NCBI GenBank assembly: GCA_029061605.1
Contig: JAIDRT010000045.1
Location: 808-64,807, forward strand
Origin: Clostridia bacterium
GTDB taxonomy: Bacteria; Bacillota; Clostridia; Christensenellales; UBA3700
DNA length: 64,000 bases
Reading direction: 5' to 3'
The notes beneath the pieces are model-generated. The model did no database searches. It was not told the DNA's origin and worked only from the letters and a program-made list of their open reading frames with translations. Each line of letters begins with the position of its first letter. Within the stretch, counting starts at the first letter, position 1. Positions 1,287-63,981 of this stretch are shown in pieces. A program made the position numbers and the translations under genes.

Positions 1287-3044
1287 ATGCAACCTACAAT
1301 TGGCATAAGACCGATTATTGACGGCAGATGGGGCGGTATTAGGGAGAGTCTTGAAGATCAGACTCGCCGTATGGCTCAATCGGCTAAAAAACTTATTGAA
1401 AGCAATCTTTTTTATACTGACGGTACTCCGGTACGCGTCGTAGTATATGACGGAACGATAGGCGGAGGCGCAGAGGCAGCAAAGTGCAAAGAATTTTTTG
1501 ATACGCAAAACGTAGTGGGCACGTTGAGTGTAACGCCGTGTTGGTGTTATGGCTCTGAGACTATTGACCTTGACCCATCAACTGTCAAGGCGGTATGGGG
1601 GCTCAATGCAACGGAGCGCCCCGGCGCGGTATATCTTGCCGCGGCAATGGCGATACACGCGCAAAGAGGACTGCCTGCGTTTGCTATTTACGGCAGAGAC
1701 GTGCAGGATAAGGACGACGAGAATATCACTCCTGACGTAGCGGAAAAGATTTTGCGTTTTGCAAAAGCCGCAATCGCAGTGGGCAGTATGCGCAATAAAG
1801 CGTACGTCGGACTGGGTAGCGTATCTATGGGCATAGGCGGATCTTTTTTGGACGGCAATCTTATGCAAAAGTATTTTGGTATAAGAGCGGAATGGGTGGA
1901 TATGTCAGAGATAAACCGCCGTATCACTCTTGGCATATACGACAAAAAAGAATATGAAAAAGAACTTGCCTGGATAAAGGCAAATTGCAAAGAGGGCATA
2001 GACACCAACGCAAATCCCAAGACGAGAGAAGAAAAGGATAAGCAATGGGAGTTTATTGCAAAAATGACTTTGGCTATCAAGGATATAATGATAGGCAATC
2101 CAAAACTCAATGACATAGGCTGGCACGAAGAGGCGCTTGGACGCAATGCGATACTCGGCGGATTCCAAGGACAGCGTATGTGGACGGATTGGCTTCCCAA
2201 CGCAGATTTCAGCGAATCCATTCTCAACACCTCTTTTGATTGGAACGGAAAGAAAGAGCCTCTCATATTGGCTACTGAAAACGATACGCTCAACGGTATG
2301 AGTATGCTCTTTGAAAAACTTTTGAGTTATCAGGCAAGTATATTTGCAGACGTGCGTACTTTCTGGTCGCCTGAAGCAATAAAGCGTGTGACTGGATGGA
2401 CGCCTACAGGCAGAGCAAAGGACGGATTTATGCACCTTATCAACAGCGGTGCGGCGGCGCTTGACGGCACGGCTATGTCAAAGAACGAAAAGGGCGAAAG
2501 CGTAATCAAGCCTTGGTGGGAAATGAACAAGAAGGATATTGACGCTTGTATGTCAAAGACAGATTGGTGCCAAGCCAACCTTGGGTATTTTAGAGGCGGC
2601 GGCTTTAGTTCGCACTTCAAGACTGAGGCAGAGATACCTGTTACTATGATGAGAATGAATATGGTAGACGGTCTCGGACCTGTGATACAAATTGCTGAAG
2701 GCTATACTGCTGTTGTACCTGATGACGTGCAAAAGACACTTTGGGACAGAACAGACCCAACTTGGCCTAGCACTTGGTTTGCTCCGCGTCTCACAGGCAA
2801 AGGCGCATTTAAGGACGTATACAGCGTTATGGCAAATTGGGGCGCAAATCACGGCGCATTCACTTACGGACATATTGGCGCGGATATAATCACGCTTGCT
2901 TCTATGTTGAGAATACCTGTCAGTATGCACAACGTTGACGAAGACAAGATTTTCCGTCCGCACGCTTGGACCGCGTTTGGCACGGAAGATAAAGAAGGAG
3001 CCGATTACAGGGCTTGCGCAAATTACGGAGCACTATACAAGTAA
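1287..3044 (+). CDS. fucI: L-fucose isomerase
   Basis: IGIRPIIDGR N-terminus, TPCWCYGSET, TERPGAVYLAA, GFQGQRMWTD, ATEND, WGANH; SD AGGAG. Confidence 0.97.
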   Translation: MQPTIGIRPIIDGRWGGIRESLEDQTRRMAQSAKKLIESNLFYTDGTPVRVVVYDGTIGGGAEAAKCKEFFDTQNVVGTLSVTPCWCYGSETIDLDPSTVKAVWGLNATERPGAVYLAAAMAIHAQRGLPAFAIYGRDVQDKDDENITPDVAEKILRFAKAAIAVGSMRNKAYVGLGSVSMGIGGSFLDGNLMQKYFGIRAEWVDMSEINRRITLGIYDKKEYEKELAWIKANCKEGIDTNANPKTREEKDKQWEFIAKMTLAIKDIMIGNPKLNDIGWHEEALGRNAILGGFQGQRMWTDWLPNADFSESILNTSFDWNGKKEPLILATENDTLNGMSMLFEKLLSYQASIFADVRTFWSPEAIKRVTGWTPTGRAKDGFMHLINSGAAALDGTAMSKNEKGESVIKPWWEMNKKDIDACMSKTDWCQANLGYFRGGGFSSHFKTEAEIPVTMMRMNMVDGLGPVIQIAEGYTAVVPDDVQKTLWDRTDPTWPSTWFAPRLTGKGAFKDVYSVMANWGANHGAFTYGHIGADIITLASMLRIPVSMHNVDEDKIFRPHAWTAFGTEDKEGADYRACANYGALYK

Positions 3045-3045
3045 A

Positions 3046-3233
3046 ACCCAATGACTTCGCTCGAAAAAGCGTACCCAAGCGTGTCATTTGGCTGACTTCT
3101 ACACGCAAATTTTATTGACGTACATAGAGTACGACTGCAAAATCTGCGCGCAAAATTCAAACCAAAGCACATCGCTTGGGTGTTGACGATTTTATTTTCA
3201 ATAAAATTACGCTTTTTGAGTTTGTCATCGGGT
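3046..3233 (-). repeat. Structured ~188-nt intergenic element, copy A (candidate ncRNA or REP/MITE-like)
   Basis: Nested inverted repeats along the whole length plus an AT side hairpin; A-C mismatches on + become G-U pairs on -; shares motifs with 12018-12206. Confidence 0.75.
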
Positions 3234-3359
3234 ATTATGAGTTTTCGTAAAATTTAATAGGTTTATTCAATATTAGATTTTAAACTATCTAAAAATCAAA
3301 GGCAAGTGATATATACGGCGGTCGTATGATTGCCGTATAAAACAATATAGGAGAACAAT

Positions 3360-4616
3360 ATGGACATAAAGACGCTGTCGACTAAAGAACAAGTTTTGTT
3401 GGCAATGGACAGGGTATATTCAAATGCTTTGACGACCACGTCGGGCGGAAACATATCTGCAATGGACGAGAGAGGACATATCTTCATTACTCCAAGCAGT
3501 ATAGACAAGGGAACTTTGACTATAGACGACATTGTCGAAGTGCTTCCCGACGGAACTTGCATAGGCAAGCACGCTCCGTCAATGGAATTGCCTTTTCACT
3601 CCAATATCTACAGAGAGTGCAAGGACATAAAGGCAATAGTACACGCCCACGCTCCTGCGGCGGTTGCGTACGCTTGTATGCGAGTTGCTCCCAACCCTTC
3701 TTGCGCAAGAGTATATGAAGACAAACTCGGCAAGATTGCAGGCTCAAGATACGCGCTTCCCGGGTCACTTAAACTCGGCGACATTGTAATGCAGGGATTC
3801 AAGGACGGATACCGTACTGTGATGATGGACAATCACGGCGCAACGGTTGGCGGAGGAGATATGCAAAAAGCGCTTGCAATGTATGAGACGCTTGACTATC
3901 TTTGCCGTTCGCTTTTTCACGCGCAGACGCTTGGCGGAGCAAAGTATATAAAAGATAAGATATCATTAAAAAATACCAAATATTCAGTTGGTAATATAGG
4001 CAAAGGCGATATTGCAAAACGAGAAGAACTTACAGCCTTCATCAAGAGAGCCTACAAAGGTCAACTCGTTGGCAGCGGCTGGGGAACTCTTGCGATAAGA
4101 GACGGCAGCGGAGTGATTTTCAATGCCGATTGCGACAGCCCGCTTGACTTGTCGGCTGACGATATTGTCAGATATGAAGACGGCAAGGTGTCAGTTGATA
4201 AGCCTTGTAAATATCTTGATTTGATTTTGAAAATCTTTGACAAAATTCCTGAGGCGCAAAGCATATTCGTATCAATGCCGTCGGCGGTAATGGGATTTGC
4301 TATGGCAAACGTAGAGTTTGACGCAAGACTGATACCTGAGAGTTACATTATGCTCAAAGATGTCAAGAGATTGCCTTATTCGGCTATCGGAGATTACGAT
4401 TTGATTGCAAATACTTTGACGACGGCTTGTCCAGTGACTGTCATTGACAATGAGTGTATTATTACGATAGGCAAGAATACTACCAAGGCTTTTGATAGGT
4501 TGGAAGTGTGCGATTATTCCGCTCGCTCCGTATTACTTGCAAAGTCTGTGGCAAAGATAAATCCAATCGACGAAACGCAAGTCAAGGAGATCGACGACAA
4601 CTTCAATGGGTGGTAA
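3360..4616 (+). CDS. Class II aldolase/adducin-family protein with two tandem domains (fuculose/rhamnulose-1-phosphate aldolase-like)
   Basis: GGNIS, ITPS, PSMELPFH, HAH, NHG in domain 1; degenerate second copy (GWGTLA, DNEC); lies between fucI and the sugar kinase. Confidence 0.85.
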   Translation: MDIKTLSTKEQVLLAMDRVYSNALTTTSGGNISAMDERGHIFITPSSIDKGTLTIDDIVEVLPDGTCIGKHAPSMELPFHSNIYRECKDIKAIVHAHAPAAVAYACMRVAPNPSCARVYEDKLGKIAGSRYALPGSLKLGDIVMQGFKDGYRTVMMDNHGATVGGGDMQKALAMYETLDYLCRSLFHAQTLGGAKYIKDKISLKNTKYSVGNIGKGDIAKREELTAFIKRAYKGQLVGSGWGTLAIRDGSGVIFNADCDSPLDLSADDIVRYEDGKVSVDKPCKYLDLILKIFDKIPEAQSIFVSMPSAVMGFAMANVEFDARLIPESYIMLKDVKRLPYSAIGDYDLIANTLTTACPVTVIDNECIITIGKNTTKAFDRLEVCDYSARSVLLAKSVAKINPIDETQVKEIDDNFNGW

Positions 4617-4619
4617 TTT

Positions 4620-6038
4620 ATGGCAAAGAGCGTAAGGGTGCTTGCAATAGATTTGGGGGCAAGTTCCGGCAGGGGAATAATATTTCACCTTGCGGACGGC
4701 AAACTGCAACAAAACGTAATACACCGCTTTCCCAACGGCGCAGTGGAACGAGACGGCAGACTCTATTGGAATTTGGATATGCTTTTTACTGAGGTCGTAA
4801 AGGCTATTGGGATTGCTTGCAAAGACGGTAAATTAGACGGCGTGGGTATAGATACCTGGGGCGTGGACTTTGGGTTCGTAGGCAAAGACGGCAAGGCGAT
4901 TTGCGACGACTTTCGCAATTATCGCAATCCTGCCAACGCCGCAGTCAGCAATTCTCTTGACGAAAGCGTCAGGAAAAAACTCTTTGAGATCGCAGGTATA
5001 TCTGACAACGATTTCAACACGACATATCAACTTATTGCGAGAGCAAGGGAGGATTACGATTTTGACGGCGTTGAGCATATGCTTTTTACGCCTCAACTCT
5101 TGGGATATATGTTGACGGACGTTGCCGTAAGCGAGCCTACTATATCGTCGACCAGCGGCTTTTACAGACAAAGTATAGGTTTTGACGAGAACTTTTTGAA
5201 ACAATGTAAAATACCAAAAGATATATTGCCCAAGAGCGTTGACACTTGTTCAGTCATAGGTAATTTAAAGGAAGATATAAAGGAGAAGGTTGATATTGAC
5301 TATGATTTGCCTGTCATTGCCACGCCGGGACACGATACTGCTTGCGCAGTGCTGGGAGTGCCTTCGCAAGAGGAATATCCGCTATTCTTGAGCAGCGGCA
5401 CGTGGTCTCTCTTTGGCGCGCTTGAGGATAAGCCTATCGTAAACGACGACGCGTGGAAATATGGCTACACCAACGAACTTGCCTTTGGCGAAAAAGTAAG
5501 GCTATTGCGCAATATTATGGGTATGTGGATAATACAGGAGTGCCGTCGACAGTGGATAAGCGAAGGCAAAAATTTAGACTATCCGCAAATCGTTGCGCTT
5601 GCAAAAGACAGCCAAGATAAAGGCGCATTTATTGACGTCAACGACTCTTCGTTTGCTTTGCCTTGCAATATGGCTGACAGCGTCAAAGCCTACGTCTTGA
5701 CAAAACAAGGTATAAAGTTGAACACCATTGGCGAAGTAGCAAGATGCGTATATACATCGCTTGCAAAGGCGTATAAAGATGCGTATGACGGACTTGTCAA
5801 ATTGACGGGCAGAAAGTACGACAAGTTGTATATCATAGGCGGCGGAGCCAACAATGATTATCTCAATCAAATTATCGCAGATACGTTGGGTATAGAAGTA
5901 TCTGCCGGTCCGTCGGAGGCAAGCGCACTTGGCAACGCAATAGGACAATTCGTCGGCTTGGGCGCAATAAAGCCAAGTCAAATCAAAAATATCATTATGG
6001 CAAACTGTGACGTGAAAGTTTTTTTGCCAAAAAAATGA
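4620..6038 (+). CDS. Rhamnulokinase/L-fuculokinase (FGGY family)
   Basis: LAIDLGASSGR, GIDTWGVDF, GHDTACAV, SSGTWSL, NIMGMW, IIGGG. Confidence 0.9.
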   Translation: MAKSVRVLAIDLGASSGRGIIFHLADGKLQQNVIHRFPNGAVERDGRLYWNLDMLFTEVVKAIGIACKDGKLDGVGIDTWGVDFGFVGKDGKAICDDFRNYRNPANAAVSNSLDESVRKKLFEIAGISDNDFNTTYQLIARAREDYDFDGVEHMLFTPQLLGYMLTDVAVSEPTISSTSGFYRQSIGFDENFLKQCKIPKDILPKSVDTCSVIGNLKEDIKEKVDIDYDLPVIATPGHDTACAVLGVPSQEEYPLFLSSGTWSLFGALEDKPIVNDDAWKYGYTNELAFGEKVRLLRNIMGMWIIQECRRQWISEGKNLDYPQIVALAKDSQDKGAFIDVNDSSFALPCNMADSVKAYVLTKQGIKLNTIGEVARCVYTSLAKAYKDAYDGLVKLTGRKYDKLYIIGGGANNDYLNQIIADTLGIEVSAGPSEASALGNAIGQFVGLGAIKPSQIKNIIMANCDVKVFLPKK

Positions 6039-6057
6039 AAAACAGATATCAGGATTT

Positions 6058-6085
6058 AAAGACGGCCAAGCAGGTCGTCTTTTTT
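6058..6085 (+). terminator. Intrinsic terminator of the fuc operon
   Basis: AAAGACGGCC/GGTCGTCTTT followed by a T-run. Confidence 0.75.
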
Positions 6086-6195
6086 AGATTGGGTATTGCA
6101 ATTGGTATTTTTATATGTTATAATTAAGATAACCAAAGGAAATAGTTGTAAAATTAATTTGGCGTTTTGAATCAAAGTATAAGGGGGAGTTAGCA

Positions 6196-7089
6196 ATGAA
6201 AAAGAAATCAATATTTTTAATTTCGATATTACTTGTAATTTGCGTATTTGCATTTTCCTTTGCAGGGTGTTATGATAATAAGAATACGATAAAATTGATT
6301 CGAGTATATCAATTGCCGGATTCTAATATTGTCTTTGAAATAGAGAGTGTCCTGGCAATCGATTGGTTGGAGTATACGGTGGATGACGGCAATACTTGGC
6401 AGAAAGCAGAGCATAGAAGTATTTTTGGAAATTATTATTATTGCGAAATTTCAGAGGCGGATTACGGAAAAGAATTTAAAATTGCTGTGAGAAACGGTTT
6501 TAGAGAAAAAACTAAATCTAATACGATAAGTTACGTAGTAAAGGCTCCAGTTGATTTTTGGGAAGGTAATCTTTGTGGCGTTTGGAACGAAACTGTAAGG
6601 ATATATAAAGACGAGTACCGCTTTGTTTTTGAAGACGGCACAATTCAATTAAAAAAATATTATTCACAGCAAAACGATGTTGCAGTACTCAACGACGTTG
6701 AGCAAAAAGACAAACTCAATTTTGAATATAAGTTGCTTGAAAATTTTAGCGCAGTAGAGCAAAAAGCGGATAAATTGAAAGACTTGGATTTTTTAAGGGA
6801 TTTATTTCCCAACGAAGATGAATATTTGCAGGCACTGGAATTGGTTGCGGTCTGGGATTCATATATTGAGCAGTTGGACGAACTATATGATATGGAGGGG
6901 TGGAACGATTACGATTACTCTAAAGGTATATTGGAAGAAGAATATTCAGATCATACAGTAGCGCGTTTTAGTGCAGGGGATGATGGCATAGTTTTGTCAG
7001 GAAAACAAGTCTTTTTGTTGGTGAGAATTAAAGAAAGCAGTTCTACGTTAAGGTCAGAGACATTTCTGATAATCGTACCATTGCAGTAG
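6196..7089 (+). CDS. Hypothetical lipoprotein
   Basis: MKKK, hydrophobic stretch and FAGC lipobox; SD GGGGGAG; upstream TTGCAA-17-TATAAT. Confidence 0.75.
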   Translation: MKKKSIFLISILLVICVFAFSFAGCYDNKNTIKLIRVYQLPDSNIVFEIESVLAIDWLEYTVDDGNTWQKAEHRSIFGNYYYCEISEADYGKEFKIAVRNGFREKTKSNTISYVVKAPVDFWEGNLCGVWNETVRIYKDEYRFVFEDGTIQLKKYYSQQNDVAVLNDVEQKDKLNFEYKLLENFSAVEQKADKLKDLDFLRDLFPNEDEYLQALELVAVWDSYIEQLDELYDMEGWNDYDYSKGILEEEYSDHTVARFSAGDDGIVLSGKQVFLLVRIKESSSTLRSETFLIIVPLQ

Positions 7090-7104
7090 ACGACTTTCAT
7101 AAAT

Positions 7105-7140
7105 ATTAAGAGCCCTTCGATAAGCGAAAGGCTCTTTAAT
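7105..7140. terminator. Bidirectional terminator between convergent genes
   Basis: AAGAGCCCTTCG/CGAAAGGCTCTT hairpin. Confidence 0.7.
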
Positions 7141-7152
7141 TTTATAGACGTA

Positions 7153-7791
7153 TTATTTTGTGCCAAATAGTCTGTCTCCGGCATCGCCGAGACCGGGTAC
7201 GATATATCCGTTTTCGTTGAGACCTCTGTCAAGAGTGGAGACGAAAACAGGCACGTCGGGATGGGCGAGAGCAACCTTTTCCACTCCCTGTGGAGCGGCG
7301 ATAATAGACATAAGTCTAATCTTCTTGCAACCTCTTCTCTTAAGTGCGTCAAGAGCGTCGACGGCAGAGCCGCCTGTCGCAAGCATTGGGTCGACGAGGA
7401 AGACAGTCTTGTCTTCTATGCCCTCTGGGAGTTTGCAATAATACTCTTGCGGCATAAGGGTTTCTTCGTCGCGATACATACCGATATGTCCCACCTTTGC
7501 TGTAGGGAAGACTTTATGCACGCCATTGACCATACCAAGTCCCGCTCTCAATATGGGCACTATAGCCACGCTTTCGTCAGGGACTTTGTATTGAGTGGTG
7601 ACTTCTAGAGGAGTTTCTACCTGCACCGGAATCAAATCCACGTCTTTCATACTTTCGTACGTCATAATCATAGTTATTTCTTCAATAAGTTCTCTGAATT
7701 CTTTCATTGAAGTATTTTTGTCGCGCAGTATTGCGATTTTGTGCTTGATAAGCGCGTGATCAAAAATAAATACGTTGTCAAATTTTTTCAT
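7153..7791 (-). CDS. upp: Uracil phosphoribosyltransferase
   Basis: [35 protein letters not shown]. Confidence 0.97.
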
Positions 7792-7801
7792 TATTTCCTC
7801 C

Positions 7802-9370
7802 TTAGGATACCAGATTGTCGTCTTGAATATCGTTTTGTATTTTTTCTCCGTCAGTTTCAGTCGAAGTCTCTTGAATAATTTGTTCTTGAGAACTTACCGT
7901 GGCGTCTGCAGTGATTTCTGCGACGTCTTCTTTTGCAAGTTCTTGCTTTTCTTCGTTATTTGCTGTTTTGTCTTTTATCTTGATATTGACGAGCAAGTTG
8001 ACGAGAATACCGAGTATAAGCGCGCAAGCCACTTCCGTAACTGTTATTGAGCCGAAGTTGAGCGTCATACCGCCTACGCCTGCAATGAGTATGACTGACA
8101 CGACGAAGAGGTTTTTGTTGTCGCCGAGGTCAACGCCTTGGATCATCTTAAGACCTGATACCGCAATAAAGCCGTAAAGCGCTACGCACACGCCGCCCAT
8201 TACGCAAGATGGGATAGTGGATAAGAAGGTGACGAATGGAGCAATAAAAGAGAAGAGTATCGCCAATATTGCCGTAGTCAAGATTGTCACTACTGAAGCG
8301 TTGCCCGATATTGCCACGCAGCCCACCGATTCACCGTAAGTCGTGTTTGGACAACCGCCGAATATCGCGCCTGCCATAGATCCGACGCCGTCGCCAAGCA
8401 GCGTTCTTGTGAGACCAGGATCTTTTAATAAGTCATATTCTATAATACTTGATATATTCTTGTGATCGGCGATATGCTCGGCAAATACTACGAAAGCCAC
8501 AGGAATATACGCCACTGCAATCGTGCCTATATAAGAGCCTATAGAGCCTACGCTACCCGCGTCCAAACCGCCTTTAAAAATTGGCAAAAAGGCAAACTCG
8601 GGATACCACTGCATATCTTGGAAAAGAGAAAAGTTGATGATTTGCAAAGCCTCGGTATGCGTTGCGTGGCCTATGCCTGTAAATATTGCGGCTACTAAAT
8701 AGCCTGATAAAATACCTATGACAAACGGTATCATTTTCATAAGTTTTTTTCCGTATACGGAGCATATTATTGTCACGGCAAGAGTAATAAGTCCGCACAG
8801 AAAAGCGACATACGGAGAGCATACCATTTGTTGCGTAGTCACCTCTTCAAGTACGGCGCTACCGTCCACTACTTTTGCAATGAGTTCAGTGACGTTCTTA
8901 GTGACGTTGCCTTTAAAAAGATCGCCGATAGCGTTGCCTGCAAGTGAAAGTCCTATGATTGCGACCGTAGGTCCTATTACGACGGCAGGCATAATTTTAT
9001 CCACCCATTTTACGCCTGCAAACTTGACGACTATTGCAATAATCACGTATACCAGACCTGCAAATATTGCGCCTATGATTAGTCCGAGATACCCAAGCGA
9101 CGCTGACACGCCTCCTGCGAATGCGGCGCCCATAGAGCCTAAAAAGGCAAAAGAACTGCCCAAGAAGACTGGGCTTTTGAATTTGGTAAATAGCAGATAG
9201 ACTATCGTGCCTACGCCTGCGCCAAACAATGCCGCAGAGGGCGACATCCCGTTGCCGATTATCATTGGCACTGCGATCGTTGCCGCCAATATGGCAAGCA
9301 GTTGTTGAAGCGAGAAAAGTATTAGTTGACCCGCTTTGGGTCTGTCTTTGACGCCGTAAATCATTTTCAT
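7802..9370 (-). CDS. uraA: Uracil/xanthine permease (NCS2 family)
   Basis: [23 protein letters not shown] signature; start moved to MKMIYG (SD GAGAGG); operon with upp. Confidence 0.9.
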
Positions 9371-9621
9371 TGAAATTATCCTCTCTTGTATTTTGACAAC
9401 TTGCGTTGTATTTTTCTTTTGGAATTTTATGCGTTTGATAACAAAGAGAGTACTCTGAGTAAACACGGTAAATTCTTTAATAATAATTTTACCATATCTT
9501 ATCGCGCATTGCAACAAAGTTAAAAAGTTTTGTAAATAAAAAGGTGAAGTCATTGAGATTGATTTTGTTGATTTTTAAGGCATTGCATTTTATAATAATA
9601 AAAAACGCAAAGGAAGATAAA

Positions 9622-10209
9622 ATGGACGGTAAACTTGAAAATATGAAGATTTATCTTTTGGATAGAAATCTTGCAATGACTGAGAGTTGGACAGAGTATT
9701 TTAAAGATATGCCCAACTTTGAAATCGTTTGTGATGATTTTGCGCATTTTATGGAGCATAATCAAGTGGATTGCGTAGTTTCGCCAGCAAATTCTTTTGG
9801 ACTTATGGACGGCGGTTACGATTTGGCAATAACAAAGTGGTTTGGAGTAAATTTGCCAAGAAAAGTTCAGCAGTACATTTTAAGTAACTTTTACGGCGAA
9901 CAGCCTGTCGGCACGAGTATCATAATCGACACGGATAAAGACGGCGTAAAACTCATACATACTCCCACTATGAGAAGTCCCAGTAGAATACGCGACCCAT
10001 TGGTGATTTATCAATGTATGCGCACTTGTCTTATGACGGCGCTCTCCAACGGTATCAACAGCATTGTAATTCCCGCTTTCGGCGGAGCCGCCGGAGAAGT
10101 GGAGTACGGCGTAATTGCAAATATGATGTATCGCGCGTATAAGCAACTTTTAGATCCGCCGTATTACCTCAACTGGGCATACGTCAATTCGTCGTCGTTT
10201 AGATATTAA
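9622..10209 (+). CDS. Macro-domain (ADP-ribose binding/hydrolase) protein
   Basis: VSPANSFGLMDGGYD, IHTPTM, IPAFGG; start placed at the ATG after AAGGAAG. Confidence 0.85.
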   Translation: MDGKLENMKIYLLDRNLAMTESWTEYFKDMPNFEIVCDDFAHFMEHNQVDCVVSPANSFGLMDGGYDLAITKWFGVNLPRKVQQYILSNFYGEQPVGTSIIIDTDKDGVKLIHTPTMRSPSRIRDPLVIYQCMRTCLMTALSNGINSIVIPAFGGAAGEVEYGVIANMMYRAYKQLLDPPYYLNWAYVNSSSFRY

Positions 10210-10228
10210 ATTCATATATATTGATACG

Positions 10229-10963
10229 TTAGATTATGTACGGCATAATTACACTTGAGACGTGGATATATCCTTCTTTAGTCAAGTGAAGTCCGTCGAC
10301 GGAATATTCTTTCTTGAGATTGCCGTTTTGGTCTTTAAGAAATGGATTTACGTCAATATATACGCAATTGCAGTCGTTGCACAAATTTTTCAGAAGTACG
10401 TTAAGTTCGTCTATGACGATATTTGTACGGTTTCCAGTCTTGCTAAAGAAAGTAGGTTTTCTTACGGCATTTACAGGGTAGACGGATTGAATAAATATTT
10501 TGCAATCTGGCAACGCAACTTGTATCTTTTGAATTATCATATGTATAGTATTTGCAATCTCTTTAGGCGGTATATTTTTTCCTATATCGTTGGTGCCGCC
10601 CAGAAAAATTATCTTGGTTGGCGCAATATCAAGCACGTTGGATTGAAGACGGTTGAGCATATCTTTAGTAGTGTCTCCAGATATACCTCTGTTGCAAAGA
10701 TTTAAATGGGGAAAGTATTCTTCAAGATCGTACATTTCCGTGATAGAATCTCCAAAGAAGACAGTTTTACCGCGAGTGGCGTTGACGCCTGCGCTTGCAT
10801 ACGTCGTTGCTTTTTTGTCTTTATTGCCGAGAAAGGTTACGCCTTGCACTCCGTAGATTGCAAAATAAGACGCCGTCAGCGTGATACATATTATTGCTAT
10901 TGCGCTTACGGTAGCAATTACGGAATTTCGTATTTTTTTGTCATAAGGTATCATATTCTGCAA
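10229..10963 (-). CDS. SGNH/GDSL esterase-lipase with N-terminal membrane anchor
   Basis: GDSITE, NRGISG, GTND, DGLH blocks. Confidence 0.9.
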   Translation of the reverse strand: MQNMIPYDKKIRNSVIATVSAIAIICITLTASYFAIYGVQGVTFLGNKDKKATTYASAGVNATRGKTVFFGDSITEMYDLEEYFPHLNLCNRGISGDTTKDMLNRLQSNVLDIAPTKIIFLGGTNDIGKNIPPKEIANTIHMIIQKIQVALPDCKIFIQSVYPVNAVRKPTFFSKTGNRTNIVIDELNVLLKNLCNDCNCVYIDVNPFLKDQNGNLKKEYSVDGLHLTKEGYIHVSSVIMPYII

Positions 10964-11173
10964 CTCCTTATTTTATCATACGTAAATTTTCCGTTGTTGA
11001 ACAACGCATCATACTTTATTTTATATGTTTTTGCAATTTAAGTAAATAGGGTAAGTTAAAAAAAATATATATTTACAAAAATTATACAAAATTTATTAAT
11101 TTGCTTTTGCAATGTAGACGGTATATGATATTATATTGATAGATAATTATATTTTGGCTTTAGAGAGGTAAAT

Positions 11174-11980
11174 ATGGCAAAATTATATCTTGTCGGCACG
11201 CCTATAGGCAATCTTTCCGACATAACTTTGAGAGCGCTTGAGACGCTTAAATCAGTTGATGCCATAGCGTGCGAAGATACTCGCCACTCTCTCAAATTGC
11301 TCAATTATTATGATATAAAGAAGCCGCTTTTTGCCTGTCACAAGTTCAATGAAAAGCAGAGTGTAGACAAGATATATTCAATGCTTGAAGAGGGCAAAGA
11401 CGTTGCGCTCATCACTGACGCCGGTATGCCTTGCATATCTGACCCGGGCGCGGTCGTAGTCAACGGACTTTTGGAAAGAGGCGTAGATATAAGCGTGATC
11501 CCCGGCGCTACGGCGCTCACCAGCGCAATGGCGCTTTCAGGCATATGTCAGTCTACGTTTACTTTTATCGGCTTTTTGCCTGCAAAGAACAAAGACAGAG
11601 ATGCGCTGTTATTACCATTTAAAAACGTAAGGACGTCTTTGGTATTTTATTCTTCACCATACGATATCAACAAGGATATCGAATATTTGCACGGCGTTTT
11701 GGGCGACAGAAAGTTGCATATCGTCAGAGAGATTACTAAGATTCACGAGGAGCATATCGTCACTAATTTGGTGGAAGGAATTCAGGAGTCTCCAAAGGGA
11801 GAATACGTTCTTATCGTAGAATGCGGGCAACAGGAAGAGAGCGCTCCGCAAGGCAGTATTGAGGAACAACTCGACGAATTACTTAAAAGCGGCGTTGATA
11901 AAAAGAGCGCAATCAAGCAAGTTGCAAAAGCAAATGGCTTGAACAAAGACGAAGTATACAAAATCGCAATAAGTAAGTGA
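11174..11980 (+). CDS. rsmI: 16S rRNA C1402 2'-O-methyltransferase
   Basis: LYLVGTPIGNLSDIT, ACEDTRH, DAGMPCISDPG, REITKIHEE, KGEY. Confidence 0.95.
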   Translation: MAKLYLVGTPIGNLSDITLRALETLKSVDAIACEDTRHSLKLLNYYDIKKPLFACHKFNEKQSVDKIYSMLEEGKDVALITDAGMPCISDPGAVVVNGLLERGVDISVIPGATALTSAMALSGICQSTFTFIGFLPAKNKDRDALLLPFKNVRTSLVFYSSPYDINKDIEYLHGVLGDRKLHIVREITKIHEEHIVTNLVEGIQESPKGEYVLIVECGQQEESAPQGSIEEQLDELLKSGVDKKSAIKQVAKANGLNKDEVYKIAISK

Positions 11981-12017
11981 TTTATTTTAAATACGTTTTA
12001 ATGATAAGTAAGAATTT

Positions 12018-12206
12018 GCAGTTGAGAATAGCCAAAAATAACACAATTTTATTTATAAAATCGCGGAGCGTCTAAATAGCGTAATTTGGTTTGAATTTTG
12101 CGTGGCGTCGAGGTCAAGGCGTACTGTATGTACGTCGACGGAGCGTCACGTGAAAGACAAGCGAATGGCGCATTTAGATGTGTTATTTTTGGTTATGCTC
12201 GACTGC
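12018..12206 (+). repeat. Structured ~189-nt intergenic element, copy B (candidate ncRNA or REP/MITE-like)
   Basis: 27-nt terminal arms 12018-12044 and 12180-12206 pair 26/27 including G-U; AT side hairpin; inner long stem with CGTAC-TGTAT-GTACG tip. Confidence 0.75.
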
Positions 12207-12219
12207 GCACAAACAAGTG

Positions 12220-12248
12220 TTGACTTTTGAACGGCTGTCGTGTATAAT
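12220..12248 (+). promoter_or_regulatory. Sigma-A promoter of the TetR gene
   Basis: TTGACT-17 nt-TATAAT. Confidence 0.75.
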
Positions 12249-12266
12249 ATAATATTAGAGGAAAAT

Positions 12267-12848
12267 ATGATAGAAAAAAGTCAATATAGAAGCGCGATAA
12301 GGTCTAAGAAGTTTATTAAAAACGCTTTTTCTGAGTTGTTGCAAAAAAAAGATTTAGAGAAAATTACTGTCACAGAGATAGTCAAGTTGTCGGGGCTCAA
12401 CAGAGGTACGTTCTATGCGCACTACAACAATATCACTGACGTACTTGAGGAAATAGAGAAGGAAGTGACAGATAAGATACTCTCGCTCTTTTCAGCATAC
12501 AAAGACAGTATCATAGAAAATCCCACTCCGTTTTTAAAGGAGATTGCAGACTTTTTGCAAAGGGATTATGAGTTTTACAAACGATTGATTTGCGCAAAGA
12601 TGGGAGAGAACTTTATAGACAAACTCAAAGAGTTTTTCGTCGCGACGGTGATGGAAGAGATCAAGACGGACGAAGTTGAAGACAAAGCAAAATTTTTGCT
12701 CATCGTCAGGTTTTATACCAACGGATTTGCCAATATGTACGTAGACGTTTTTAAGGGAAAACTCGACGTCACGTTGGATAAACTCACTGGTATGATGGGT
12801 GAAATTATTGCAGTTGGCATAGGTGAATTTAAGATAATACCGCAATAA
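12267..12848 (+). CDS. TetR/AcrR family regulator
   Basis: HTH ITVTEIVKLSGLNRGTFYAHY; ATG after GAGG. Confidence 0.92.
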   Translation: MIEKSQYRSAIRSKKFIKNAFSELLQKKDLEKITVTEIVKLSGLNRGTFYAHYNNITDVLEEIEKEVTDKILSLFSAYKDSIIENPTPFLKEIADFLQRDYEFYKRLICAKMGENFIDKLKEFFVATVMEEIKTDEVEDKAKFLLIVRFYTNGFANMYVDVFKGKLDVTLDKLTGMMGEIIAVGIGEFKIIPQ

Positions 12849-46900: not shown

Positions 46901-47515
46901 AAACTTAAGGTGGAGAACGGTCAAAAGGTTGCAGCCGGCGAAGTATTGACGCAAGGTAGCATCTATCCTCAAGACTTGCTCCGCACCAAAGGCGCAAAGG
47001 ACGTTCAGGAATATATCATTAAAGAAGTCAAGATACCTTACGCAAGCGCAGGTGTTGACATCAACGAGAAACATATCGAAATCGTTGTTAGACAAATGCT
47101 CCGCAAGGTAAAGATAGAGAATCAAGGCGACACGTCTATGATGCCGGGCGAATACGTAGATATATTTGCGTACGAGGCAGAGAACGAAAAGACTATCGAA
47201 GAGGGCGGAAGACCTGCTATAGCAAAGAGAACTTTGCTTGGTATTACCAAAGCCGCTTTGGCTACGGAGTCATTCCTCTCCGCAGCGTCATTCCAGGAGA
47301 CTGCAAAGGTATTGACAGAGGCTGCTATCAAGAATAAGGTAGATCACCTCGTCGGACTTAAAGAAAACGTCATCCTTGGTAAACTTATTCCTGCAGGTAC
47401 CGGTATGAAGAGATATCGCAATATCGTAGCGCTTCCTGCCGGCGGCACGGAAAACCATATCGTCGAGGAGAATATCGAACACAAGTTCGCTGGCGAAGAC
47501 GATATCGAAGACTAA
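43925..47515 (+). CDS. rpoC: RNA polymerase beta' subunit
   Basis: Zn finger, [35 protein letters not shown]. Confidence 0.99.
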
Positions 47516-47529
47516 CAACTTAATACTTA

Positions 47530-47623
47530 ATTCTATAGAGAGTGTGGGAGTGACGGACACTGAGAACACACAGCAACCTCTTGTAAGGTGCTAAATTCCG
47601 CAAGTATACTTGATAGATAGAAT
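47530..47623 (+). promoter_or_regulatory. SAM-I (S-box) riboswitch aptamer
   Basis: P1 ATTCTAT/ATAGAAT, GAGAG, kink-turn-like GA..TGA, AGCAACC..GGTGCT P3, CGGA/TCCG pseudoknot, AGAT; upstream of metK. Confidence 0.9.
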
Positions 47624-59462: not shown

Positions 59463-59590
59463 TGTCATTTCAACCCAAGCAAAGCGAAGTGGAGAAATCT
59501 CCACCTATTTAATAAACGGATAGAGACCTCTCGACTATGCTCGAGGTGACATAAAATAAATTGTCATTACGACTGAAGTGGAGAAAACTC
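59463..59590 (+). repeat. REP-like palindromic element (one full unit plus a second 5' arm)
   Basis: TGTCATTTC..GAAGTGGAGAAATCTC paired with GAGACCTCTCGAC..TCGAGGTGACA, followed by TGTCATTACGACTGAAGTGGAGAAAACTC. Confidence 0.75.
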
Positions 59591-63822: not shown

Positions 63823-63899
63823 GGGGGATTAGCTCAGTTGGCTAGAGCGCCTGCCTTGCAAGCAGGAGGTCAAGAGTTCGACTCTCTTATTCTCCACCA
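63823..63899 (+). tRNA. tRNA-Ala(TGC)
   Basis: G3-U70 acceptor pair, CCTGC-CTTGCAA-GCAGG anticodon arm, TTCGA, CCA. Confidence 0.97.
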
Positions 63900-63904
63900 C
63901 TAAT

Positions 63905-63981
63905 GGGCTCATAGCTCAGCTGGTTAGAGCACACGCCTGATAAGCGTGAGGTCGGTGGTTCGAGTCCACTTGAGCCCACCA
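63905..63981 (+). tRNA. tRNA-Ile(GAT)
   Basis: CACGC-CTGATAA-GCGTG anticodon arm, TTCGA, CCA. Confidence 0.97.

Follow-up and report, generated by a model that had tools for sequence, protein, structure and literature searches.

What sort of element keeps the same long hairpin at two intergenic places of one genome while the arms of that hairpin have almost no sequence in common? The question is raised by a stretch of 64,000 nucleotides (nt) from a Clostridia bacterium (assembly GCA_029061605.1, contig JAIDRT010000045.1), called the window here at its full length, in which a sequence-only reading had proposed two elements, copy A (3046-3233, minus strand, 188 nt) and copy B (12018-12206, plus strand, 189 nt), as a candidate family of structured RNA or single-stranded DNA. 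The coordinates, lengths and motifs of both elements were found as described, and the family, named F1 here, now comprises 30 aligned model matches, with copies in part of the genus. A and B are probably copies of a non-autonomous interspersed repeat that is structured as a single strand. Its members are gained, lost and nested in one another, and compensatory changes preserve their pairing. One strand folds better than the other; this strand keeps a constant orientation (it is the C-rich one, antisense to most genes), and its 3' end is usually placed at a gene boundary.

Two long hairpins and their family

Copies A and B both form long hairpins, of -86.1 kcal/mol on the minus strand for A (z -10.70) and -86.2 kcal/mol on the plus strand for B (z -10.62), and none of 200 shuffles folds as well in either case. 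The opposite strands fold much more weakly in both copies (-64.5 kcal/mol for A, -56.3 kcal/mol for B); the asymmetry between strands is thus genuine and, as had been claimed, favours the homologous strand in the two copies. RNAalifold on the pair gives 45 common base pairs, 12 of them changed on both sides. The stems had been described as fully covarying; the pairing holds, and the comparison of A with B is one between two F1 sub-lineages, since A carries a divergent 'A-type' core and B the majority 'B-type' core. The same 18-mer lies on the 5' side of the inner stem of A (3149-3166, minus strand) and in B (12085-12102, plus strand), and it occurs exactly twice in the window, even when three mismatches are allowed (0.25 expected by chance). 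A third match in the genome, at C3:6876 with two mismatches, was set aside as chance, as it reads as coding sequence and has no hairpin. The hairpin tip, of the type CGTAC, 5-nt loop, GTACG, occupies 3117-3133 (minus strand) in A and 12120-12136 (plus strand) in B, and its 15-mer is found in the window only at 3119-3133 (minus) and 12120-12134 (plus), with 0.31 expected. Minimum free energy (MFE) structures place an A+T side hairpin at about 3187-3207 in A (minus strand, AATTTTAT..ATAAAAT) and, together with the 30-copy alignment, at about 12045-12062 in B (plus strand), where a small CGC-N3-GCG hairpin follows; both intervals are approximate to a few bases.

A covariance model, R1, was built from A and B, which it scores at 207 and 206 bits, and was used to search the window's own genome (G000, a metagenome-assembled genome, or MAG, of 2.08 Mb in 75 contigs) and 40 relatives, 22 of the same genus and 18 from outside it. 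The search that had been proposed for further copies thus extended the picture well beyond two. The window's genome gave six good matches, namely A and B, two further full-length copies (C2:996-1182, 94 bits; C29:66840-67023, 90 bits) and two copies, on C71 and C21, matched over the core only. Among the relatives, F1 is present in 12 of the 22 genus-mates, with 1-10 copies each, and in none of the 18 genomes outside the genus. An exact degenerate pattern of the tip, run against the genomes of 185,579 species (one each), gave 16 loci in eight assemblies, all of them MAGs of uncultured Clostridia or Clostridiales, one being labelled Christensenella.

The anatomy of F1 was read from an alignment of the 30 model matches, A3. 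The termini are semi-conserved and inverted, with about 8 nt at each end in most copies (5' ACCCGATG, 3' CATCGGGT); as the whole element is a hairpin, any end of it is inverted-repeated. An outer stem of ~18 bp has nearly no sequence in common among non-orthologous copies and is paired in every single-sequence fold. It encloses a conserved core, made of the A+T side hairpin (kept in most of the 30 copies), the small CGC-N3-GCG hairpin and the stretch with the 18-mer, which is among the best-conserved parts of the element and has a varying pairing partner. The tip is invariant and flanked by G/A-rich mismatches. The A-type core is limited to copy A and three orthologues (in G012, G015 and G017), all other copies, B included, being of the majority type. 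In A3, which was fitted to the model structure, 93.6% of the cells are standard pairs, as against 84.0% in shuffles and 35-45% with slid partners, and changes on both sides are seen at 29 of 45 pairs; none of 500 shuffles reaches any of five measures. Covariation, which the sequence-only reading had asserted from two copies, exceeds all of these controls.

F1 is not alone. A second repeat, F2, is a rod-like hairpin of ~165-170 nt with 22 copies above 100 bits in the window's genome (for example C39:18893-19058, C33:16274-16442 and C54:6311-6475, all outside the window), and BLAST detects it in 15 of 22 genus-mates and in none of the 18 genomes outside the genus. Its outer stem covaries as well, GTTGGGCGAG pairing with CTCGCCCAAC in one place and GTTTTGCGAC with GTCGCAAAAC elsewhere, and its tip, CGTACTTGCYGTACG between GAG and TGA, resembles that of F1. 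This tip is common to F1, F2, a further type (F4) and elements in other lineages. At one conserved gene end, compared over 19 of 23 loci (those of G004, G014, G016 and G020 were left out, and that of G022 reaches a contig end), F2 stands in the window's genome, a diverged relative of it in G006 and only its first 17-27 nt in G015, G002 and G018, and in G021, G010 and G008, where searches detect neither F1 nor F2, that position is taken by different hairpins that bear this tip, the one in G008 having a stem, CATAC..GTATG, that covaries. Counts of the 15-mer of the tip in 301 genomes sampled across the order gave 31 occurrences in G000, 11 in G010, five in G014, eight in G185, two in G145 and five singletons, as against 11 singletons and never two per genome for a reversed control pattern. 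The matches in G185, G145, G231, G010 and G014 all lie at the tips of long hairpins, and a metagenome scan added 20 tip loci, most of them from a further family, all 20 more stable on the same strand. F1 thus belongs to a superfamily of rod-like hairpins that occurs in one uncultured Christensenellales-like genus and, here and there, in further lineages of this order. G185 belongs to a different family of the order and its seven sampled congeners have no tip motif, and a horizontal transfer of the superfamily is possible there.

That this superfamily of structured repeats is new to the databases searched is well supported. For these elements, Rfam 15 at its gathering threshold gave no match anywhere in the window; permissive scans of the A and B regions returned a best E-value of 0.82, far below every family's cut-off, and no match was obtained for the loci with F1 inside F2, for F2, for F4 or for the elements of other lineages. 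The novelty suspected from the sequence alone withstood this check. Collections of plasmids, phages and viruses held nothing that matched copy B or either tip pattern, and a full-text literature search on Christensenellales repetitive elements, with related searches, gave no description of this family.

Some further observations concern these repeats and their surroundings. The repeat unit of G185 (L157, L167) is at least 282 nt long, and near the element of L157, at 1255-1327, Rfam's Gut-1 RNA gives a sub-threshold match (33 bits, where the gathering score is 50). Positions 1630-1770 of L175 (on C24 of the window's genome) hold an F4-type hairpin with the common tip; it stands in sense orientation between two open reading frames (ORFs), and 2 nt separate its 3' end from the following ribosome-binding site (RBS). 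A separate repeat of ~37 nt, F3, resembles repetitive extragenic palindromic (REP) sequences (GATTYYTC ... GAATGAC or GAAATGAC) and occurs in the window at 59464-59499 (minus strand) and in at least 27 other places of the genome. An F3-like motif stands 50-110 nt 5' of ~11 of the 22 F2 copies in the same orientation, as read by eye from the flanks, and F3 and F2 may form a composite unit. A 14-nt stretch in the 3' arm of copy A (window 3050-3075) is the reverse complement of the F3 core, at eight loci of the genome. The window also holds three tRNA genes (1006-1076, 63823-63896 and 63905-63978).

One favoured strand and its place at gene ends

The preference for one strand, first seen in A and B, extends to the superfamily. 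With RNA parameters the sense strand is the more stable one in 26 of 30 F1 copies, and the corresponding strand folds better by 10-35 kcal/mol in all 20 full-length F2 copies, whose reverse strands still reach -45 to -72 kcal/mol. DNA parameters give the same direction in 22 of 24 full-length F1 and 20 of 20 F2 copies. The claim that mismatches resolve as G-U pairs on one strand only also holds in the larger sample, where A3 has 131 cells of G.U type and 17 of A.C type. The genome has a strong GC skew (~0.1), with most coding sequence near the elements on the G-rich strand, and its 22 F2 and 6 F1 copies are dispersed over ~20 contigs beside large conserved genes. In 25 of these 28 copies it is the C-rich strand that carries the fold, against the direction of most local genes, so mutational skew should oppose an enrichment of G and T there.

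Position follows a rule as well; the sequence-only reading had noticed neither it nor the orientation rule nor the wider superfamily. The gene beyond the 3' end of F2 is convergent in 19 of 22 copies, and in 14 of 22 this end lies -22 to +7 nt from the convergent stop codon, mostly at 0-3 nt; by our own arithmetic, two F2 copies interrupted by F1 obey the same position when measured from their displaced 3' halves. At the relatives' loci, in counts that include orthologues of copies of the window's genome, seven of 12 F1 copies end within 5 nt of a convergent stop codon and 10 of 18 F2 copies at -2 to +7, while none of the same 12 and 18 copies has its 5' end within 10 nt of a co-oriented upstream stop codon. 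The rule was drawn from the window's genome and its relatives, since the ends of MFE helices are too unreliable in the metagenome loci. The element does not supply the stop codon, which is present in genomes without the element, and at the single locus looked at, the gene has an intrinsic terminator of its own past the element, which therefore sits inside the 3' untranslated region (UTR). Other copies are sense-oriented, and an RBS or an S-adenosylmethionine (SAM) riboswitch lies 0-6 nt from their 3' ends.

Both arrangements are represented in the window. Copy A is antisense to the flanking plus-strand ORFs (1287-3044 and 3360-4616), and a gap of 2 nt separates its 3' end from the stop codon that closes the convergent 585-amino-acid (aa) ORF, presumably a fucose-isomerase-like gene according to the label given in the sequence-only reading. 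Copy B is in sense orientation relative to its neighbours (11174-11980 and 12240-12848), between a 268-aa ORF and the sigma-70-like promoter (12220-12248) of a 202-aa ORF. These relations to the flanking ORFs are the ones that had been reported. Elsewhere in the window, the spacer from the stop codon of a large ORF to a SAM riboswitch (47530-47623) is an empty site, at 47515-47530; in G007 and G001 an F1 element occupies that spacer, 6-8 nt 5' of the riboswitch.

Gain, loss, nesting and the mobilising enzyme

The sequence-only reading had preferred a mobile element to a terminator or a plain duplication, a preference upheld by empty sites, remnants and a nested insertion. At the A locus the element follows the 585-aa ORF in the window's genome and in G012, G015, G017 and G006, and the site is empty in nine of the 14 genus loci, including that of G013, whose protein is 97% identical. 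Relative to G013, the insert consists of the hairpin and ~75 nt on its 5' side, a leader at 3234-3310 (minus strand) that comes with copy A and is missing from the empty site. The orthologue in G006 (L078) has a majority-type core between outer arms like those of A, and this sequence pattern suggests core replacement or conversion between copies. The orthologue in G015 is decaying, with 10 pairs broken. At the B locus, tallied over 11 of 21 loci, the element is intact only in the window's genome; fragments are left in G015 and G012, perhaps also in G020, and none in seven. The F1 copies on C71 and C21 that the model matched over the core only proved to be full elements of ~276 nt with the usual termini, each inserted in an F2 copy, and uninterrupted F2 copies run across the insertion site (GGCTG-TATT-GGCGG, as against GGCTG-element-AGGCGG).

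Several points weigh against the reading of A and B as copies of such a repeat. The search for empty sites and target duplications that had been proposed gave the former and not the latter, since no consistent target-site duplication appears at ~20 F1 and 20 F2 junctions, and the classical cut-and-paste behaviour of a MITE (miniature inverted-repeat transposable element) is accordingly not borne out; two F1 copies (L025, L027) could have a 3-nt direct repeat. All comparisons of empty with filled sites are between species, with no fresh insertion seen between near-identical strains, so that deletion of an old element is not always separable from insertion. The fitting of A3 to the model structure inflates its pairing, and many of its rows, like many of the relatives' copies, are orthologues, so that the counts are not independent. 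Four of the 30 F1 copies (L033, L006, L023 and L009), among them C2:996-1182 of the window's own genome, fold no better on the sense strand than on the other. In the A orthologue of G017, seven double and five single changes keep pairs and three pairs are broken, and such retention of the fold in orthologous A copies fits a resident function better than pure selfish DNA. Moreover, no partner enzyme was found in the searches for TnpB, Y1 transposase, reverse transcriptase (RVT_1) and integron integrase.

These searches leave the mobilisers that had been suggested without a match to the distribution of the elements. Neither a Y1 transposase of the HUH/REP kind nor a reverse transcriptase tracks them: the only genomes with intact Y1 ORFs (PF01797), which are G003, G004, G005 and G009, all lack F1, the window's genome having no more than a 26-bit fragment, and the reverse transcriptase (PF00078; ~380 aa), present in 17 of 23 genomes, is missing from the element-rich G001, G002, G010 and G014. 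A 378-aa reverse transcriptase ORF two genes downstream of the F4-type copy on C24 was dismissed as a coincidence, given that several element-rich genomes have no such gene. TnpB (PF07282) was found in none of 23 genus genomes, with a control search positive in eight of 14, and the integron integrase (TIGR02249) exceeded its cut-off in none of five element-rich genomes, where sub-threshold matches were of the kind seen in all 14 controls. Among ORFs of at least 120 aa in the window's genome there is no multi-copy transposase-like ORF, in a survey in which multi-copy ORFs were not run against family libraries; MAGs often lose copies of insertion sequences (IS). The only highly multi-copy ORFs of the genome (on C18, C19, C25, C26, C53, C75 and others) are pieces of very long ORFs, up to ~6 kb, with repeated domains in common. 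A guide-like role of the variable arms was also considered and rejected, as a short-word BLAST of four own-genome F1 arm pairs against the genome gave no systematic target, the matches including one exact 18-nt match for the 5' arm of A and 14-nt matches of its 3' arm to F3 copies.

If A and B are copies of a mobile repeat, the element would act as a single strand, and what a trans-acting protein (a recombinase, transposase, reverse transcriptase or RNA-binding protein) recognises could be the constant tip and core. Such a protein would copy or move the element, and the stems, free in sequence, would need only to pair. Some resident copies such as A, whose fold is kept after speciation, may also have been taken over for a local role. 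A further and tentative proposal, which we would hold with clearly less confidence, is that gut Christensenellales harbour an unrecognised class of single-strand hairpin mobile elements, whose enzyme would read the tip and place the element in a constant orientation and at most a few bases from a gene boundary, in most cases at the first bases after the stop codon. To our knowledge, gene-boundary targeting of this kind has been described for no transposon, retroelement or recombination site.

Other explanations and known systems

Whether the active strand is single-stranded DNA (ssDNA), as an intermediate of transposition or recombination, or RNA stands at about even odds, and the same evidence bears on the reading of the elements as paralogous non-coding RNA genes or cis-antisense RNAs. 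In that account the fold strand is transcribed, the hairpin is a protein-binding scaffold and the RNA acts on the convergent gene at its 3' end, or in trans on complementary copies in other mRNAs; we consider it unlikely, though well worth keeping in mind. RNA is favoured by the strong tolerance of G.U pairs, by the energy gap of 10-35 kcal/mol between the strands with RNA parameters, by the fold retained at A after speciation and by some sense copies directly 5' of an RBS or SAM riboswitch. It is also favoured by a promoter-like site 5' of copy A, TTGCCT-17-TAAAAT at 3305-3277 (minus strand), whose hexamers and spacing recur, as read by eye, 5' of the orthologues in G012 and G006 and not of those in G015 and G017, that is, in three of five species. 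Such sites are no more frequent in the region than in shuffled sequence, however; consensus scans for promoters and terminators around A and B do not exceed the shuffled expectation, the 45-nt 5' flanks of the copies have no common motif, and in several copies, read by eye, the distance from the 5' end to the following RBS, that of a gene on the other strand, is only ~35-40 nt, which leaves little room for a promoter. In three RNA-library runs only contigs of a relative, ~90% alike or less, were found; these span A and end short of B, they give no information on strand, and their origin may be polycistronic mRNA or DNA carry-over. A range of 0-10 copies per genome within one genus, decaying copies and the nested insertion also speak against RNA genes. 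For ssDNA there are the asymmetry with DNA parameters, the orientation that follows a replication-linked skew, the decay of copies, the short operon spacers and the chance-level promoter scans.

The placement after stop codons could also mean that the hairpins serve the upstream gene's mRNA by stabilising it, terminating it or stalling ribosomes on it, as REP sequences close to stop codons have an effect. The elements lie 0-7 nt past stop codons and, at the locus examined, upstream of the gene's own terminator, and the reverse strand still folds. Pairing is nevertheless selected on the other strand, as the 131 to 17 ratio indicates, the mRNA strand is the weaker one in all 20 F2 copies, no U-tract follows either strand and no terminator-like site was found at A or B, so a 3'-UTR device appears quite improbable. 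Resemblance to attC sites, the folded single-strand substrates of a tyrosine recombinase that mark gene 3' ends, is closer in some respects: sequence varies while structure is kept, and relative to the upstream ORF the folding strand is antisense, with its beginning directly behind the stop codon, and it corresponds to the strand expected to be the leading-strand template. Against this stand the integrase search, the dispersal of the copies near core genes without cassette arrays, a size of 165-190 nt that is larger than attC and a conserved centre between free stems, the opposite of attC. In gene orientation, moreover, the termini are GTT...AAC, which inverts the order of the attC end motifs, and an attC-like identity is rated as very improbable. 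That A and B might be two divergent 6S RNA paralogues was suggested by the length of ~189 nt, by the closing stem and terminal hairpin and by the absence of an RF00013 match in the window's genome. This absence means little, as the RF00013 search was positive in only five of 14 control genomes; no RF00013 match appears at A or B even at E-values up to 10, the rod is almost fully paired without a central bubble, and the many copies, absent from 10 of 22 genus-mates, refute 6S RNA by number and distribution, leaving it a practically negligible chance. Single-strand origins of rolling-circle plasmids, whose TAGCGT hexamer also occurs in the F1 core, were rejected, as the elements are chromosomal and multi-copy and match no plasmid.

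The interspersed-repeat reading thus stands as the preferred one. Small structured repeats are common in bacteria, and most described families come from cultured Proteobacteria and Bacilli. The F1/F2 superfamily, confined to uncultured gut Clostridia and absent from Rfam 15, combines three features that are rarely found together, namely free but paired stems around an invariant tip, single-strand selection against the local skew, and a fixed orientation with the 3' end at stop codons. If the position rule reflects targeting, it would point to a novel recognition of gene ends; if it reflects function, it would point to a widespread antisense or DNA-structure device at gene boundaries. In a related sample, DNA contigs break off at A and at B alike, which indicates that the elements break MAG assemblies, and a covariance model would improve the annotation of such genomes.

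Among known systems, derivatives of IS200/IS605 (the palindromic elements called PATEs and TnpB omega-RNA) are alike in having no target duplication, strand-specific hairpins and a bias in replication orientation, but TnpB is found in none of the 23 genomes and Y1 is anticorrelated with the elements. In IS608-type elements the fold strand has the orientation opposite to the C-rich strand seen here. REP and REPIN elements, whose RAYT (Y1 HUH) transposases are the subject of PMC2817692, are also palindromic extragenic repeats with a single-strand logic and frequent placement just after genes; their units are palindromes of 20-40 nt, whereas F1 and F2 are rods of 165-190 nt and intact Y1 is confined to genus-mates without F1. 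With attC sites the elements share conserved structure with free sequence, an antisense working strand that starts from the stop codon and the leading-strand template, a placement given in PMC5371416 for 25 of 30 sedentary chromosomal integrons; they differ in the lack of IntI and of arrays, in the reversed end motifs, in the conserved centre and in their larger size. MITEs are defined in the review PMC3184786 as short elements (below about 400 bp) without a transposase gene in many copies, and F1, at 185-193 nt, agrees with this description. The same review reports for bcr1 of the Bacillus cereus group a long RNA hairpin, transcription and compensatory changes. F1 differs from MITEs in that no target-site duplication recurs consistently, the inverted termini are semi-conserved over 8 nt only and no autonomous IS related to it was found, and further in an outer stem nearly free in sequence, a tip invariant across families and strong rules of strand, orientation and gene-end position. 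Although the target duplication that defines them is not seen here, the closest known kind is the hairpin-forming bacterial MITEs such as bcr1, which, together with ERIC/IRU and Correia elements, and for bcr1 as PMC3184786 describes it, are like F1 in being non-coding, intergenic and below 200 bp, in occurring in many copies that are patchy between relatives, and in forming a long hairpin with compensatory changes.

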